From: Candidatus Fermentithermobacillaceae bacterium
GTDB lineage: Bacteria; Bacillota; Sulfobacillia; Fermentithermobacillales; Fermentithermobacillaceae
Direction of reading: 5' to 3'
DNA length: 64,000 nucleotides
Assembly (NCBI GenBank): GCA_012841375.1
Contig: DUUV01000121.1
Location: 30,186-94,185, forward strand
The position numbers and the translations under genes are program-made. The notes under the pieces are model-generated. The model saw nothing but the letters and a program-made list of their open reading frames with translations, was not told the DNA's origin and did not search any database. This document shows, in pieces, positions 13,528-19,363 of the stretch (positions are counted from its first letter, which is position 1; every line of letters starts with the position of its first letter).

Positions 13528-13780
13528 AGCGGGTTCTGACCGCTCAGCGTTGAGCTCAAAGTACGCTCTGGTGATCGCTGTGGCAAAGAGAGCCAGAGAG
13601 ATAGTGGATGGAAGAGAGGAACCGTTGGGTTCGGGCCACAAACCGGTGACCATCGCGCTTGATGAGATTAACCGGGGAAAAGTGATAGTGACCCTCAAGA
13701 AACAAGACCCGGCCCACCTCGAAGAGGACGAAGAGACGCCGGAGGAACAAGTCCCCGGTGAGTCAGAGCCATTCATATGA
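13517..13780 (+). CDS. rpoZ: DNA-directed RNA polymerase subunit omega
   Basis: KYALVIAVAKRAREI motif; ATG 13517 with AGGAGGA RBS, overlapping gmk end by 11 nt; ORF-track N-terminal extension rejected. Confidence 0.85.
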   Translation: MMTEAGSDRSALSSKYALVIAVAKRAREIVDGREEPLGSGHKPVTIALDEINRGKVIVTLKKQDPAHLEEDEETPEEQVPGESEPFI

Positions 13781-15794
13781 GCCTCGGGGGACACCCTCTG
13801 TGTCCCGTGATCCCGTGGACGCCGTTTACCTAGACATTATCGTGGACGTGCCGGCCGTAGGCGACCGGCGGTTTACGTATTCCTGTCCATCTGAGATTTC
13901 CCTCCCGAGGGGAGCCAAGGTGAGGGTACCCTTCGGCAGGGCAAGAGCCGATGGCTTCGTCCTTGGCGAATGCGCCGAGAAACCGCCTTTCAGCATAAAA
14001 CCGGTTGAAGATATCTACGATCTATCTTTCTTGCCCCCGCAGGAGCTCCTGGGTTTGACGGAAGCGCTGGCACGACACTATTGCGCCTCAACCGCCTCTC
14101 TTTGGTCCAACTTGTACCCGCCGGTAGTGCCGCGGAAGAGCGTCGCCAGGGTGCTCAAGGAGGGCGGCCTTCCGCCTCATCCAGCCATTCCGGACCGTGA
14201 GCCGGCTCAGGAAGTAGAGAAGACCGACCTCTCAAAGGAAATGGAGACGGTTCCCGTTCTCTATGTCTGGGGCTCCCGGCGGTTCAGGTGGAATAAGTAC
14301 CTCGACCTCACAGACAGCGCGCTCAGACGTGGGCAAAGTGTCCTCATCTTGTGCCCTGAGACAAAGGTGTTAGAAGGTATCCTGGCCCTCCTGAGCGCAA
14401 GGTTCCCGGGTGAGGTATGCCCGGTCAACTCCGAGATGACAGGAGTCGTCCGGAGGACTTCGTGGCTCGCTCTTTCACGAGGAGAGGTGAAGATAGCGGC
14501 AGGTACAAGGTCCGCTGTTTTCGCGCCCCTCCGCGACCTGGGATTGGTGATCCTGGACGAGGAGCCTGGATCGGCATACAAGTCTCTGGACTGGCCGTTT
14601 ATTGACGCCAGGACCGCGGCCGTGGCCCGCGGAACCAGAGGGGCCAAGGTGGTGTTCGGAAGCGCTTATCCGAGCGTAGAGGCAGTAGAGAACATTGAGC
14701 GGCGCCGGTGGTCGTGCCTACGGGAGGGTCCGGCCGAACCGCCGGAGAACGGCGAGGGCCTCTTGGAGCCGGGACCGAGGGTAACGGTCGTTGACCTCAA
14801 GGAGACACGCCCCCGCAGAGAGATCATCTCAGCACCTCTCCAGGGGAAACTGGCGGCCGCGTTCTCCTCCGGACACCGAGCCGTCCTGTTTCTAAACCGG
14901 CGCGGCGATTCGTCTTACGTCTCTTGCAGGGACTGTGGCAGCGCGATATCGTGCCCCCGGTGCGGAGTGCCCATGTCTTATCACAGAAGAGAGGGCAAGA
15001 CGATCTGCCACACTTGCGGTTTCCGGGAAGAAGCCCCGGCGGTCTGTCCCGCTTGCGGGGGCCACAATTGGCGGTTCTCCGGTCTTGGTATTGAGAAGGC
15101 CGAGGCTGAGTTCCAGAGAAAATTCCCCGAAGTGCCGGTTTTCACGCTTGATCAGGACGTTGCCCGCAAGACTACCCCTAGTGAGATCCTGGGCGCTTTC
15201 GGCCGGGTTTCTCCCGGGTGTCTGATTGCCACCCAGCTGGTGTTGGGACAAAGCCTCTTGCCAAAGGTCGGCATGGTAGGCGTTTTGTCTGCCGATACGG
15301 CTCTCAGCGTGCCCGACTTCCGGGCGTCTGAAAGGGCTTACCGCCTGCTTGCAGGGCTCAAGGACTGTGTTGACCCCGAACTGGGCTCTCGCGGCGTCTA
15401 TGTTGTTCAGACCCAGAATCCGGACCACCACGCCATTCGGGGAGTTGCCGGCGGCGGTTCTTTTTACGAGGACGAGTTGCGAATGAGACGAATGCTGGGA
15501 TATCCTCCGTTTAAGAGGTTCTTCAGGGTGAAGTTCGAAGGCAGGAACCTGGAGAAGGTTTCAGAAGCCGCCTCCGCGTTTGTCTCAATGCTGCCCCCGG
15601 AGGGCGATATCAGAGTGCTTGGACCGGCTCCGGCTCCGAAGCCGAAGGTCCGGGGGGTCTACCGGTGGCACGTAGCGCTGAAGGGCGACGACCACGGGAC
15701 TATGGCGGCTGAGTGCCGCCGGGTCCTGGAGGGTATGTCCAAGTTCAGGGCGGTAAAGATCCTGGTGGACGTAGACCCCGTAGATACTGAGTGA
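13758..15794 (+). CDS. priA: Primosomal protein N' (PriA) with degenerate Walker A/B motifs
   Basis: N-terminal 3'-DNA-binding domain, GTRSAVFAPLRDLGLVILDEE helicase core, four CxxC zinc-ribbon pairs (CRDCG/CPRCG/CHTCG/CPACG), C-terminal domain; Walker A reads VWGSRRFRWNKY (no GKT) and Walker B DEEP instead of DEEH. Confidence 0.9.
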   Translation: MSQSHSYEPRGTPSVSRDPVDAVYLDIIVDVPAVGDRRFTYSCPSEISLPRGAKVRVPFGRARADGFVLGECAEKPPFSIKPVEDIYDLSFLPPQELLGLTEALARHYCASTASLWSNLYPPVVPRKSVARVLKEGGLPPHPAIPDREPAQEVEKTDLSKEMETVPVLYVWGSRRFRWNKYLDLTDSALRRGQSVLILCPETKVLEGILALLSARFPGEVCPVNSEMTGVVRRTSWLALSRGEVKIAAGTRSAVFAPLRDLGLVILDEEPGSAYKSLDWPFIDARTAAVARGTRGAKVVFGSAYPSVEAVENIERRRWSCLREGPAEPPENGEGLLEPGPRVTVVDLKETRPRREIISAPLQGKLAAAFSSGHRAVLFLNRRGDSSYVSCRDCGSAISCPRCGVPMSYHRREGKTICHTCGFREEAPAVCPACGGHNWRFSGLGIEKAEAEFQRKFPEVPVFTLDQDVARKTTPSEILGAFGRVSPGCLIATQLVLGQSLLPKVGMVGVLSADTALSVPDFRASERAYRLLAGLKDCVDPELGSRGVYVVQTQNPDHHAIRGVAGGGSFYEDELRMRRMLGYPPFKRFFRVKFEGRNLEKVSEAASAFVSMLPPEGDIRVLGPAPAPKPKVRGVYRWHVALKGDDHGTMAAECRRVLEGMSKFRAVKILVDVDPVDTE

Positions 15795-15897
15795 GAGACT
15801 GAGGAATGTCTCGTCGTGCGCTCATAGGATTTACAGGAACGACCGGCGTCTTCCGAAGTCACAGAAGATATGGATATCGTGAGTGAAGGTGGTTTCG

Positions 15898-17346
15898 TTG
15901 GCGATCCTTGAGATCAGGAAGTTTGGAGACCCGGTATTGCGGAAAGCCTCCAGGCCGGTGCCGCGGGTCAACAACGCGGTACGCAAGATACTAGATGACA
16001 TGCTGGAGACTATGCGGAATGCCTCGGGGGCCGGCCTGGCCGCGCCTCAAGTGGGAATCTCAAAGAGGATAGTGATAGTAGACATCGGGGAAGGACCCCT
16101 GTTCCTCGTAAATCCGGAGATCGTCTCGGTCTCAGAAGAGACCCAGATTGGTGTCGAGGGATGCCTCAGTTTTCCGGGTTACATAGGTGAGGTTGAGAGG
16201 CCTCTCAAGATCACTGTGAAAGCGCTGGACCGGGACGGGCATGACGTATGGGTGGATGCCGAGGGCTACCTAGCCAGGGCCTGCTGCCATGAAATTGATC
16301 ACCTGGACGGCGTTTTGTACACCGACCGGGCAACGACCATCTCAGAGGTCAAGAAGGAACCTGACGAACCCGAAGGGGAAGAGGCAAAGGAGAGAGAGAT
16401 CACGGCTGTTTTCATGGGGAGCCCGGAGTTTGCCGTACCTTCTCTGGATGAACTGGTGACCTCAGGCGTCAAGGTGGAGCTCGTCGTGACCCAGCCGGAC
16501 CGTCCCTTTGGGAGGAAGCAGGAGATACGCCCCACCCCCGTCAAAGCCAGAGCCATGGAGCTGGGCATTCCGGTTCTCACTTGCGAGCGGGTGGGAGATC
16601 CCGGCGTTGTACGCAAGATCCGCGAAATCGCCCCGGACTTTGTCATTGTCGCCGCCTTCGGACAGAAGCTCCCTGAGGAGGTCTTGTCGGCCCCGAAGAT
16701 CGCGTGCTTGAATGTGCACCCGTCGCTACTCCCCAAGTACAGAGGCGGTAACCCGGTCCAAAGAGCGATCATGAACGGCGACACGGCGACAGGCGTCTCC
16801 ATCATGTACATGAGCGAGAAAGTGGATGCGGGCGACATCGTCCTCAGGCGGGAGGTCCCCATCGGCCCCAATGAGACCTTTGGGACGCTGGAAAGGAGGT
16901 TGGCCTCGTTGGGAGCTCACGTCCTTGTCGAGGCCGTGCGCCTCTTGGCGTCCGGTTCGGTCGCCCGGATACCACAAGATGAACCGGAAGCCACTATCGC
17001 CCGGCACCTCTCCAAAGGCGAAGAGGTGATCGACTGGCGAAGGCCCGCTGTGGAGGTTCACAACCTGGTTAGAGGCCTTTCACCCAAGCCGGGAGCAGTT
17101 ACTTATTTGGACGGACAACGTATCAAGATATGGCGGACTCGCCTTCCTCTTGAACTCCATGAAGGATCCCACACTGCGGGTAGTATAATTGGGGTAGAAG
17201 GCGAATCGGCGCTCGTCCAGTGCGGCGATGTCCCCATCGCCGTTTTGGAGGTTCAGCCTGAAGGCCGGAGCAGCATGAGCGCTCAAGCGTTTCTCATGGG
17301 GCTCAGGTCGAGAAATCGTGTATTCGGTGGGAGGGTAGAGACATGA
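15898..17346 (+). CDS. def-fmt: Fused peptide deformylase / methionyl-tRNA formyltransferase (Def-Fmt single ORF)
   Basis: Def motifs GAGLAAPQVG, EGCLSFPG, HEIDHLDG (aa 1-~160), acidic linker KKEPDEPEGEEAKERE, then Fmt from ITAVFMGSPEFAVPSL with HPSLLPKYRGGNP motif; no stop between domains; start TTG 15898 (MAILEI) or GTG 15883. Confidence 0.8.
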   Translation: MAILEIRKFGDPVLRKASRPVPRVNNAVRKILDDMLETMRNASGAGLAAPQVGISKRIVIVDIGEGPLFLVNPEIVSVSEETQIGVEGCLSFPGYIGEVERPLKITVKALDRDGHDVWVDAEGYLARACCHEIDHLDGVLYTDRATTISEVKKEPDEPEGEEAKEREITAVFMGSPEFAVPSLDELVTSGVKVELVVTQPDRPFGRKQEIRPTPVKARAMELGIPVLTCERVGDPGVVRKIREIAPDFVIVAAFGQKLPEEVLSAPKIACLNVHPSLLPKYRGGNPVQRAIMNGDTATGVSIMYMSEKVDAGDIVLRREVPIGPNETFGTLERRLASLGAHVLVEAVRLLASGSVARIPQDEPEATIARHLSKGEEVIDWRRPAVEVHNLVRGLSPKPGAVTYLDGQRIKIWRTRLPLELHEGSHTAGSIIGVEGESALVQCGDVPIAVLEVQPEGRSSMSAQAFLMGLRSRNRVFGGRVET

Positions 17347-18032
17347 TGTGGTGGGACCAGGGATTTTATGTCTTCGTAATCCCGGCCATGATTTTCGCCA
17401 TGTGGGCACAGGCCAAGGTACGGTCTGCGTACAACACCTATTCCAGGCTCCGCTCTCAGAGCGGTCGTACGGCCGTGGAAGTGGCCGCAGCTCTCTTGCG
17501 CAACTCGGGCCTCGGCGATGTAAGGATAGAGAAGCAGAGAGGACAGCTTACCGACCATTACGACCCCCGGTCGAGGACTCTCCGCCTCTCAGACTCTACG
17601 TACGACAGCCCGTCGGTGGCGGCTATAGCCATCGCGGCTCACGAAGTAGGTCACGCGGTCCAACATTCGGTCGGCTATGCGCCTCTGGCTCTAAGGAACG
17701 GGTTGGTTCCGGTCGCCCAGTTCACGTCGCAGGCGGCGTTTCCCCTGTTCTTCATAGGACTCTTCATGAACTCGGGGTTCCTTATGGACTTGGGGCTTCT
17801 GTTTTTCCTCGGAGCCGTACTGTTTCAGGCCATTACTCTTCCGGTTGAGTTCAACGCCTCGAAGCGGGCATTGGATATGCTCCAGGTTTCGGGCTACGTG
17901 GCGCCTTCAGAGGTGGTGCCTGTGGGAAACATGCTGAACGCCGCCGCCCTAACCTATGTGGCGGGTATGGCGGTTGCCGTCGCCCAGCTCCTTAGGCTCT
18001 TAGTGCTTCGGGGCGGCAGGCGTAGAGACTGA
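17343..18032 (+). CDS. Membrane zinc metallopeptidase (YugP-like, HExxH)
   Basis: N-terminal TM helix, AIAIAAHEVGHAVQH zinc-binding motif, C-terminal TM helices; start overlaps def-fmt stop. Confidence 0.8.
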   Translation: MMWWDQGFYVFVIPAMIFAMWAQAKVRSAYNTYSRLRSQSGRTAVEVAAALLRNSGLGDVRIEKQRGQLTDHYDPRSRTLRLSDSTYDSPSVAAIAIAAHEVGHAVQHSVGYAPLALRNGLVPVAQFTSQAAFPLFFIGLFMNSGFLMDLGLLFFLGAVLFQAITLPVEFNASKRALDMLQVSGYVAPSEVVPVGNMLNAAALTYVAGMAVAVAQLLRLLVLRGGRRRD

Positions 18033-18034
18033 CG

Positions 18035-19363
18035 TTGACTCCCCGGGAAGTCGCGCTAGACGTTCTCATGGGGCGAAGAGGCGCCTCCCGGGGAGATGTT
18101 TTTGCTTCCATCGAGAGTGGAAGCGACAGGGCTCTCGCCGAGTCGCTTGTAGCCGGGACGACCAAATGGAAGGGGCTCATTGACCGGGTGCTCGCCTCCC
18201 ATTCAGACCGCCCCCTCTCGTCCCTTGCTCCCCGGGTCCTCTGGGCGCTGCGGCTCGGTGTCTGCCAATTCCTCATCATGGGGATCCCTGCCCACGCATC
18301 TGTATCCACGACAGTGGAGCTTCTGCGAAGGCGGGGCGAAAAGGGATTCGTCAACGGCGTCCTCCGCTCGGCGGCGCGTCACTCCGGCCACGTTGAGATT
18401 CCTTCCTTGGACGAGGACATCCTGGAATACGCGACTTCCCGCTTTTCCTACCCGGAATGGATCGCCCGCCTGTTTATCGAAAGGTTCGGCCAGGCAGACG
18501 GGCTCAGATTGTTGGAGTTTGGAAACGGGGTTCCGACAATCACACTGAGGGTGAACAGCCTTAGGACCTCTCGCGACTACCTCCTGGGCAGGCTCCGTGC
18601 CCAAGGTGTGATGGCGGAGCCGGGGCCGGTTCCCGGGAGCCTTACGCTACTTAGGGGAGCCCGGGTGACTTCGCTTCCGGGCTTTCTGGAAGGCGAGTTT
18701 GTGGTACAGGACCCGTCGGCTATCGTTGCATCTCTGGCTCTGGGCGCACGGCCGGGTGAGGCAGTGTGGGACGCTTGCGCGGCTCCGGGAGGCAAGACGA
18801 CTCATTTGGCGGAGATGATGGAGGGATCGGGGACGCTTGTGGCGACCGACATCGACGCCTCTCGAGCGGACATGGTGAGGGACACGCTCGGCCGGATGGG
18901 ACTTGATTTCGCCCGGGTCCTGGCGCGAGACGCGTCGGACCCTTCTCTGGGCGGCGAACCTTTCAGTCATGGCTTCGACCGTATCTTGCTTGATGCCCCT
19001 TGTTCCGGTCTGGGTGTCATCAGGAGAAACCCGGACCTCCGGTGGAACCGGAGAGAAAGCGACATACCGGCCATGGCTCTCAGGCAGACGAGGCTGCTAG
19101 AGTCGGTCAAACGCTACCTCAGGCCAGGAGGCGTGCTCGTGTACAGTACGTGTACCCTCACCAAAGAGGAGAACGAGGATACATGGCTCCGGTTCCTTTC
19201 CAGGTCGGCCGATTTGGTCCCTCTGGACCCGGCGGCCGCTTTGGACCCCGGATCCGCCGGAATGCTGTCCGACGAGCCCTTTGCAGGGCCCGGCTACCGT
19301 TACATCCTGTCCCATCGCTCAGGGAGCGACGGGTTTTTCATCGCGAGAGCCAGGAGGGTCTGA
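18035..19363 (+). CDS. rsmB: 16S rRNA (cytosine967-C5)-methyltransferase RsmB (NusB-like N-domain + MTase)
   Basis: TTG start; SAM motif VWDACAAPGGKT, catalytic ...LDAPCSGLGVIRRNPD and TC(T/S) cysteine motif YSTCTL. Confidence 0.9.
   Translation: MTPREVALDVLMGRRGASRGDVFASIESGSDRALAESLVAGTTKWKGLIDRVLASHSDRPLSSLAPRVLWALRLGVCQFLIMGIPAHASVSTTVELLRRRGEKGFVNGVLRSAARHSGHVEIPSLDEDILEYATSRFSYPEWIARLFIERFGQADGLRLLEFGNGVPTITLRVNSLRTSRDYLLGRLRAQGVMAEPGPVPGSLTLLRGARVTSLPGFLEGEFVVQDPSAIVASLALGARPGEAVWDACAAPGGKTTHLAEMMEGSGTLVATDIDASRADMVRDTLGRMGLDFARVLARDASDPSLGGEPFSHGFDRILLDAPCSGLGVIRRNPDLRWNRRESDIPAMALRQTRLLESVKRYLRPGGVLVYSTCTLTKEENEDTWLRFLSRSADLVPLDPAAALDPGSAGMLSDEPFAGPGYRYILSHRSGSDGFFIARARRV

Follow-up and report, generated by a model that had tools for sequence, protein, structure and literature searches.

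A fused peptide deformylase and methionyl-tRNA formyltransferase gene in a Candidatus Fermentithermobacillaceae bacterium and its relatives

Peptide deformylase (Def or PDF), which is a target of antibiotics, and methionyl-tRNA formyltransferase (Fmt) together make up the formylation/deformylation cycle in bacterial translation. In 58% of bacterial species their genes, def and fmt, are co-localised, and the two were found 'fused into a single gene' in the four Exiguobacterium reference genomes out of 5,042 screened, an arrangement that was called unusual; a codon-optimised Exiguobacterium fusion returned a delta-def-fmt strain of E. coli to normal growth, and a second PDF was present in those Exiguobacterium genomes (PMC12690207, Mol Biol Evol 2025). 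A full-text literature search revealed no other description of Def-Fmt fusions. The locus analysed here, def-fmt, lies in a 64,000-nt stretch of contig DUUV01000121.1 (assembly GCA_012841375.1, positions 30,186 to 94,185 of the forward strand), hereafter the window, from a Candidatus Fermentithermobacillaceae bacterium. An earlier reading of the letters without database searches (the sequence-only reading) had proposed a fusion of the two genes at this position and had pointed to high-GC Clostridia as the relatives; the organism is a member of Candidatus Fermentithermobacillia (Bacillota) and not of Clostridia sensu stricto. The gene is very probably a genuine, evolutionarily maintained fusion, which would be expressed as one bifunctional protein of about 53 kDa.

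The reading frame and its two enzymes

A mechanical call of open reading frames (ORFs) gave an uninterrupted frame of 487 codons with a GTG start at positions 15883..17346 of the window (+). Reading the sequence through the junction revealed zero stop codons between the Def and Fmt halves, as had been claimed. The N-terminal half scored 170.1 bits with the Pfam profile PF01327 (cut-off 22.8), 144.3 bits with the NCBIfam equivalog TIGR00079 (def; cut-off 103.95) and 160 with NF001159 (cut-off 125), and the three motifs from which a complete Def domain had been proposed (GAGLAAPQ, EGCLS and HEIDH) were found in their places. By profile and by motif, this half is a member of the peptide deformylases, and by analogy it would act on N-formyl-Met peptides. 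The C-terminal half scored 280.7 bits with the NCBIfam equivalog TIGR00460 (fmt; cut-off 201.5) and has both Fmt domains, the catalytic Asn, His and Asp and the SLLP motif, which makes it a member of the methionyl-tRNA formyltransferases. The two landmarks by which a complete Fmt domain had been recognised were also present, FMGSPEFAVPSL at residues 177-188 and HPSLLPKYRGGNP from residue 279 onwards.

Alignment of 119 fused homologues revealed that G49, L52-Q56, E92, C94-S96, H136, E137, D139 and H140 of the Def half were invariant, and the metal-binding and catalytic set (Q56, C94, H136, E137 and H140) was conserved in full. The Fmt residues N277, H279, S281, L283, P284 and D315 were likewise invariant; the Asn, His and Asp are the counterparts of the catalytic N108, H110 and D146 of E. 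coli Fmt. Since the catalytic residues of both halves do not vary, both halves must be under purifying selection wherever they are fused.

The frame of the sequence-only reading stood as described, whereas its start is to be revised. The TTG at 15898, giving a protein of 482 amino acids (aa), is more likely to be the true start than the GTG at 15883, because of the spacing of the Shine-Dalgarno-like GAAGGTGG, the same AGGTGG-5 nt-TTG layout in the related locus L001, and the N-termini of most homologues, which read MAILEIR or LAIHEIR. The G+C content at third codon positions (GC3) was flat over the def/fmt junction (0.68 and 0.66), and each of the other two frames there either contained a stop or continued neither domain; therefore, no frameshift is hidden at the junction. 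A scan of the ORF found no promoter-like site inside it. An internal terminator was considered and rejected, as the single terminator-like match, within the Def domain, was no more than shuffled sequence yields.

Structure prediction was conducted using AlphaFold2 with an alignment of 119 sequences. The model had a mean predicted local distance difference test score (pLDDT) of 94.6 and a predicted template modelling score (pTM) of 0.73, and both enzymes were predicted with confidence, each above pLDDT 90. A short strand at residues 152-155 closes the Def fold in the model, and no regular structure was predicted at residues 156-173, where the pLDDT averaged 51 over residues 161-170 and was below 50 at residues 160-165. 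The lower pTM would fit two domains without a fixed mutual orientation. A sequence search of the PDB matched the Fmt structures 4iqf (E 7e-78) and 1fmt (E 8.8e-60) over residues 173-475 and the Def structure 1lme (E 5e-40); every match covered one half, and no PDB chain spanning both halves was found.

Relatives and recurrence of the fusion

The identical 487-aa protein could be found on independently assembled contigs from two JGI metagenome samples, with remA, gmk, rpoZ, priA, def-fmt, a Zn_peptidase_2 gene, rsmB and rlmN as the gene order on both. A protein-database search for Def-Fmt architectures, which had been suggested as a check, covered 5.8 billion proteins and brought up at least 119 clusters, 462-550 residues in length and 43-100% identical, in which the three Pfam domains occur together. 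A split gene in sister strains would have spoken against a fusion; L001 and L002 (both Candidatus Fermentithermobacillaceae, 75-76% identity), which are the closest among the GTDB species representatives, both carry the fusion. Compared with the window protein, they have linkers of another length and sequence, and they come from separate metagenome-assembled genome (MAG) projects. A single ORF for both enzymes is thus reproduced in independent assemblies, and the proposal of a genuine Def-Fmt fusion rather than an error was borne out by the two samples, the two fused relatives and the clusters together.

A scan of contigs from GTDB representatives gave 80 def/fmt loci, and its ranking of hits favours def/fmt pairs in the same frame, which biases the set. 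The interpretation of all 80 loci as fused was rejected: L001 and L002 are truly fused (2/80), and 78/80 span two adjacent genes with an in-frame stop between them. These 78 (L003-L080) come from very different bacteria, among them Methylocystis, Afifella, Christensenella and Oscillospiraceae; their def and fmt share one frame with one or a few stops between, and often just 1-10 codons separate the last stop from the conserved VFMG, e.g. '...GEE(stop)SLKVVFMG' in L015 and '...RAS(stop)TLRLVFMG' in L074. In several of them, the codon at the start position of fmt reads Leu, suggesting TTG or CTG starts.

The frequency of the fusion was estimated with the Fmt domain alone, which was searched against 1.84 billion representatives at 50% identity so that a bias towards long proteins was avoided, and the best 150 Fmt representatives were classified using hidden Markov models of each half. 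Def-Fmt fusions accounted for 5/150 of these nearest Fmt clusters, namely P0031 (the window's own clade), P0136, P0192, P0223 and P0231 (Exiguobacterium), and nearly all the rest were standalone Fmt, some 310 residues long. In two metagenomic Fmt representatives, P0128 and P0134, part of the catalytic domain is duplicated in tandem (NVHASLLP...TGVTIMQMDAG occurs twice), and these are probably assembly artefacts. The fusion had been described as rare, which agrees with the 5/150 count, but the architecture is already present in UniProt and has been tested experimentally in Exiguobacterium.

A neighbour-joining tree of 268 Fmt domains with 100 bootstraps, which is to be read as indicative only, placed the window protein inside an all-fused clade of 62 clusters (bootstrap 98/100). 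Members from Candidatus Fermentithermobacillaceae in this clade include L001, L002 and MBP8613512.1. Every bootstrap replicate required 12 or more switches of state (fused or unfused), which leaves one ancient origin for all Def-Fmt fusions unsupported. A wider all-fused grouping of 70 members, seen in the first tree, was recovered in 1/100 bootstraps, and the claim was limited to the 62-member clade. No bootstrap (0/100) contained an all-fused clade joining the window and Exiguobacterium proteins, and the tree, together with their unrelated linker sequences, points to a probably independent origin of the two. Within the relatives of the window bacterium the fusion has been kept by selection, as the well-supported clade and the in-frame variation in linker length reveal, and this one lineage kept it over deep divergence, to about 54% identity. 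Judged from these sequence comparisons, the Def-Fmt architecture is uncommon yet recurrent.

Linker, proposed function and rival explanations

The linker had been described as a 16-aa acidic stretch, and KKEPDEPEGEEAKERE could be located at residues 157-172. Among the fused proteins, linkers are 12-74 residues long and in frame throughout, and they fall into mutually unrelated classes: acidic linkers of 17-74 residues (the window's clade), ERVWDVPPETTLRI, LEVREVxPAPRV, and others. In the core clade, the linker's variable part has 15 lengths (9-66 aa), 38% Asp+Glu and a net charge of -2 to -17. The reported loss of the Fmt initiator Met was also confirmed, as the ATC codon of I173 (16399) is aligned to the initiator position of standalone Fmt, and the core-clade residue at this position is Leu (19), Val (15), Ile (11), Pro (8) or Phe, Ala, Gln or Lys (1 each), and never Met. 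A conserved internal Fmt start was rejected on the same count, the residue being often Pro. The further claim that no ribosome-binding site lies between the domains held in part: an AAGGAG is present at 16387-16392, but it has no ATG, GTG or TTG within usable distance downstream; the sole in-frame canonical start nearby is ATG 16414 (M178, in the conserved FMG motif), 21 nt away. Either the AAGGAG is what is left of an earlier ribosome-binding site of fmt, or Glu, Lys and Arg codons produced it by chance.

Of the unfused Fmt proteins, P0129 (53% identical) is the nearest; its gene belongs to a priA-def-fmt arrangement with a 4-nt overlap of def and fmt. Many Clostridia-type Def proteins have an acidic tail whose stop, in frame with fmt, precedes it by just a few codons. 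The fusion most likely arose from tightly packed or overlapping def and fmt genes, such as those of L083, once the def stop had been lost and, where needed, the frame had been corrected by 1 nt. The linker most likely derives from Def's acidic C-terminal tail together with the lost stop, and the fmt initiator codon would have become the internal hydrophobic residue I173. The fusion has arisen repeatedly, and the step is an easy one, as many genomes have one stop between two in-frame genes.

The N-terminal domain is proposed to be a metal-dependent peptide deformylase that strips the N-formyl group from nascent chains, and the C-terminal two-domain module would formylate Met-tRNAfMet with 10-formyl-tetrahydrofolate. 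Def and Fmt are predicted to fold independently with a flexible acidic tether between them. Both activities in this particular protein are expected by homology; the supply of both activities in vivo by a full-length polypeptide has been shown for the 41%-identical Exiguobacterium protein only, and by analogy may apply here. The fusion would impose strict 1:1 production, co-regulation, and joint inheritance and loss, and as the fused genes are inseparable, the cell would never make the formyltransferase without also making the deformylase, which renders it tolerable. According to Mazel et al. 1994, Def is reportedly essential only while Fmt is active. A selective advantage through fixed stoichiometry, with no Fmt made without Def, is plausible. 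The sequence-only reading had the fusion couple the two activities, which holds as co-expression only. No channelling of a substrate is expected, as the two reactions act on different macromolecules and at different stages of translation, with initiation and elongation between them.

A broader proposal, that the fusion is the sole deformylase and the sole formyltransferase of a class-level lineage of thermophilic Bacillota (Candidatus Fermentithermobacillia and relatives) in which it arose independently of the Exiguobacterium and Thermaerobacter fusions, is tentative and rather doubtful. If true, it would imply selection beyond co-expression, e.g. because the loss of def alone, lethal with an active fmt, would be impossible; alternatively, Fmt might be placed at the ribosome via Def, here without the usual anchoring helix.

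Three other explanations of the locus were weighed against a maintained bifunctional fusion. A sequencing or assembly error near 16340-16410 could have removed the def stop and merged two genes, and the 78/80 loci with def and fmt in the same frame and a stop between them illustrate how one wrong base could mimic a fusion. The same ORF in two independent samples, the differing linkers of L001 and L002 from different MAG projects, the 62-cluster clade that is fused throughout, the constant GC3 and the other frames, closed or continuing neither domain, exclude such an artefact for practical purposes, and it can be regarded as effectively refuted. It is also conceivable that the fused ORF yields two products, with Fmt made also or mainly by internal initiation in the linker, or released by post-translational cleavage. 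The AAGGAG 6 nt before the codon aligned to the Fmt initiator, the GGAG-rich sequence at the same place in L001 and the exposed linker, predicted to be disordered and thus accessible to proteases, would be in keeping with this. ATC, however, is a very poor initiator codon, and 21 nt lie between the GGAG and the M178 ATG. The initiator-position residue is P, F, A, Q or K in 12/57 core-clade clusters; because it varies and is never Met, no start codon is conserved at the Fmt position. Purine-rich strings resembling a Shine-Dalgarno sequence are expected by chance in a linker of Glu, Lys, Gly and Arg, and the Exiguobacterium fusion works as cloned, which is still compatible with processing. Two products from this gene are accordingly judged improbable.

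An even less probable explanation is that one half is a degenerate passenger, e.g. an inactive Def, with the real deformylase encoded elsewhere in the manner of accessory PDFs. The second, intact PDF in all Exiguobacterium genomes with the fusion (PMC12690207) would agree with it, as would the fact that the window, in which no second def or fmt was found by tblastn, covers 64 kb of the genome. Speaking against it are the Def and Fmt catalytic residues invariant in the 119 fused homologues and the scores of both domains, above curated equivalog cut-offs and above pLDDT 90. Several points weigh against the maintained bifunctional fusion itself. The Shine-Dalgarno-like AAGGAG within the linker may allow a separate Fmt by internal initiation, and a second def or fmt may lie outside the 64 kb of the genome in view; all Exiguobacterium genomes with the fusion have a second PDF. 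In the model, the Def domain ends in the 152-155 strand without a C-terminal helix; the basic C-terminal helix carried by proteobacterial Def proteins, as seen in the translated def/fmt loci, is missing here. According to Bingel-Erlenmeyer et al. 2008, this helix is said to anchor E. coli PDF on the ribosome. Docking of Def at the ribosome would also have to accommodate an attached Fmt passenger of 34 kDa, and the selective advantage is one that we infer. With these points taken into account, a genuine fusion with both enzymes functional is still considered very probable.

Genomic neighbourhood and comparison with known systems

The features of the locus are collected in Table 1. The ATG at 17343 of the downstream Zn_peptidase_2 gene overlaps the def-fmt TGA (17344-17346) in an ATGA, and because of this overlap the two genes can be assigned to one operon. 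The rsmB gene begins 2 nt past the Zn_peptidase_2 stop (18032-18035), and the three genes probably form a tight operon in which def-fmt and the peptidase gene would be translationally coupled. The Zn_peptidase_2 gene adjoins the fusion in L081 and L082 too. No tRNA gene and no Rfam family above the gathering score was found anywhere in the 64-kb window. The G+C content of the window is 58.8%, and long antisense ORFs, e.g. 16299-16871 (-) within fmt, are a usual by-product of high G+C.

Table 1. Features of the def-fmt locus in window coordinates (residue numbers follow the 487-codon frame)
Feature	Position	Strand	Basis or remark
def-fmt fusion coding sequence, most likely extent	15898..17346	+	TTG start, 482 aa
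Shine-Dalgarno-like GAAGGTGG for the TTG start	15885..15892	+	5 nt before TTG 15898
Peptide deformylase domain, residues 9-152	15907..16338	+	Pfam PF01327 Pep_deformylase, E 3.5e-50
Def motif GAGLAAPQ, residues 49-56	16027-16050	+	sequence
Def motif EGCLS, residues 92-96	16156-16170	+	sequence
Def motif HEIDH, residues 136-140	16288-16302	+	sequence
Inter-domain linker, residues 156-173, acidic, predicted disordered	16348..16401	+	AlphaFold2 and sequence
Shine-Dalgarno-like AAGGAG (16387-16392), then ATC of I173 6 nt on	16387..16401	+	sequence
Fmt N-terminal catalytic domain, residues 176-352	16408..16938	+	PF00551 Formyl_trans_N, E 1.4e-42
Fmt motif N277-V-H279-PSLLP	16711-16734	+	sequence
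Fmt D315	16825-16827	+	sequence
Fmt C-terminal (tRNA-binding) domain, residues 376-474	17008..17304	+	PF02911 Formyl_trans_C, E 2.7e-26
priA, upstream, part of the conserved priA-def-fmt neighbourhood	13758..15794	+	ORF and Pfam; same order in L081
Zn_peptidase_2 (PF04298) gene, downstream, putative metallopeptidase	17343..18032	+	ORF and Pfam

The PriA encoded upstream of the fusion appears to be without ATPase/helicase motifs when compared with PriA of the unfused L083. Walker A 'HGVTASGKTEVYL' is replaced by 'YVWGSRRFRWNKYL', DEEH by DEEP, and motif VI 'QVAGRAGRG' by 'GLKDCVDPELG'; Pfam Helicase_C is absent and DEAD was matched at E 0.045 only. The protein keeps an intact 3'-DNA-binding domain, Cys-rich zinc ribbon and C-terminal domain. 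The PriA of L001 (3926-5917), which is 65% identical, has the same motif losses, so that the loss is conserved in the lineage and the gene is no pseudogene.

The closest described system is the Exiguobacterium fusion (P0231; e.g. WP_021067074.1 / UniRef100_U1LGH2, 461 aa), which is the sole experimentally tested case. It has the same Def-Fmt_N-Fmt_C order with 41% identity over the full length, shares the catalytic motifs and has also lost the Fmt initiator Met. It differs in its shorter, non-acidic linker (LAVPDKGTDQR, compared with the 18-residue acidic tether here), in its Bacilli host with a second PDF, and in falling outside any all-fused clade shared with the window protein. In P0280, a 90%-identity cluster of 461-aa Exiguobacterium fusions, the E. 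mexicanum protein WP_353047970.1 is annotated with only 304 aa; either its start was called differently, so that the Def half is hidden, or the gene is truly split in this strain. The same architecture was found in Thermaerobacter marianensis DSM 12885 (ADU51032.1 / WP_013495337.1 / UniRef100_E6SJA4, 550 aa), a cultured and completely sequenced thermophilic member of Bacillota, with 50% identity over 407 aligned residues (query 11-417). The linker of that protein, 14 residues long, belongs to another sequence class (RKVVELPPESDLRV), and its C-terminal region is longer; the protein lies outside the window's 62-cluster clade and has automatic annotation only. UniProt names both the Exiguobacterium and the T. 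marianensis proteins 'Multifunctional fusion protein', and NCBI and JGI label the fused proteins as methionyl-tRNA formyltransferase only. The latter annotation hides the deformylase, and genomes can look def-less in automated surveys.

The two-gene def-fmt operon, as in E. coli and in the nearest unfused relative L083, has the same enzymes in the same order, with priA upstream and rsmB downstream, but its products are two separate polypeptides. The L083 genes, def (163 aa) and fmt (317 aa), are in different frames and share 4 nt. ArnA is also a natural fusion with an Fmt-like formyltransferase, and could be matched to residues 186-461 (E ~1e-38). Its formyltransferase is N-terminal, its partner is a decarboxylase and its substrate is UDP-Ara4N, and the two activities are successive steps of one pathway, whereas the reactions of Def and Fmt are not consecutive.

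Knowledge of either enzyme is unchanged by the fusion. Its natural single-chain form indicates that Def and Fmt tolerate permanent tethering, and the linkers of 12-74 residues offer a natural set for asking whether neutral 'operon compaction' or selection is at work. As the same fusion is found in every sampled relative of the window bacterium and in other bacteria, and works in Exiguobacterium, the locus adds one more case to an arrangement that is known and uncommon; the large clade centred on Fermentithermobacillia and the recurrent origin appear to have had no earlier write-up, and to extend the phenomenon known from Exiguobacterium.

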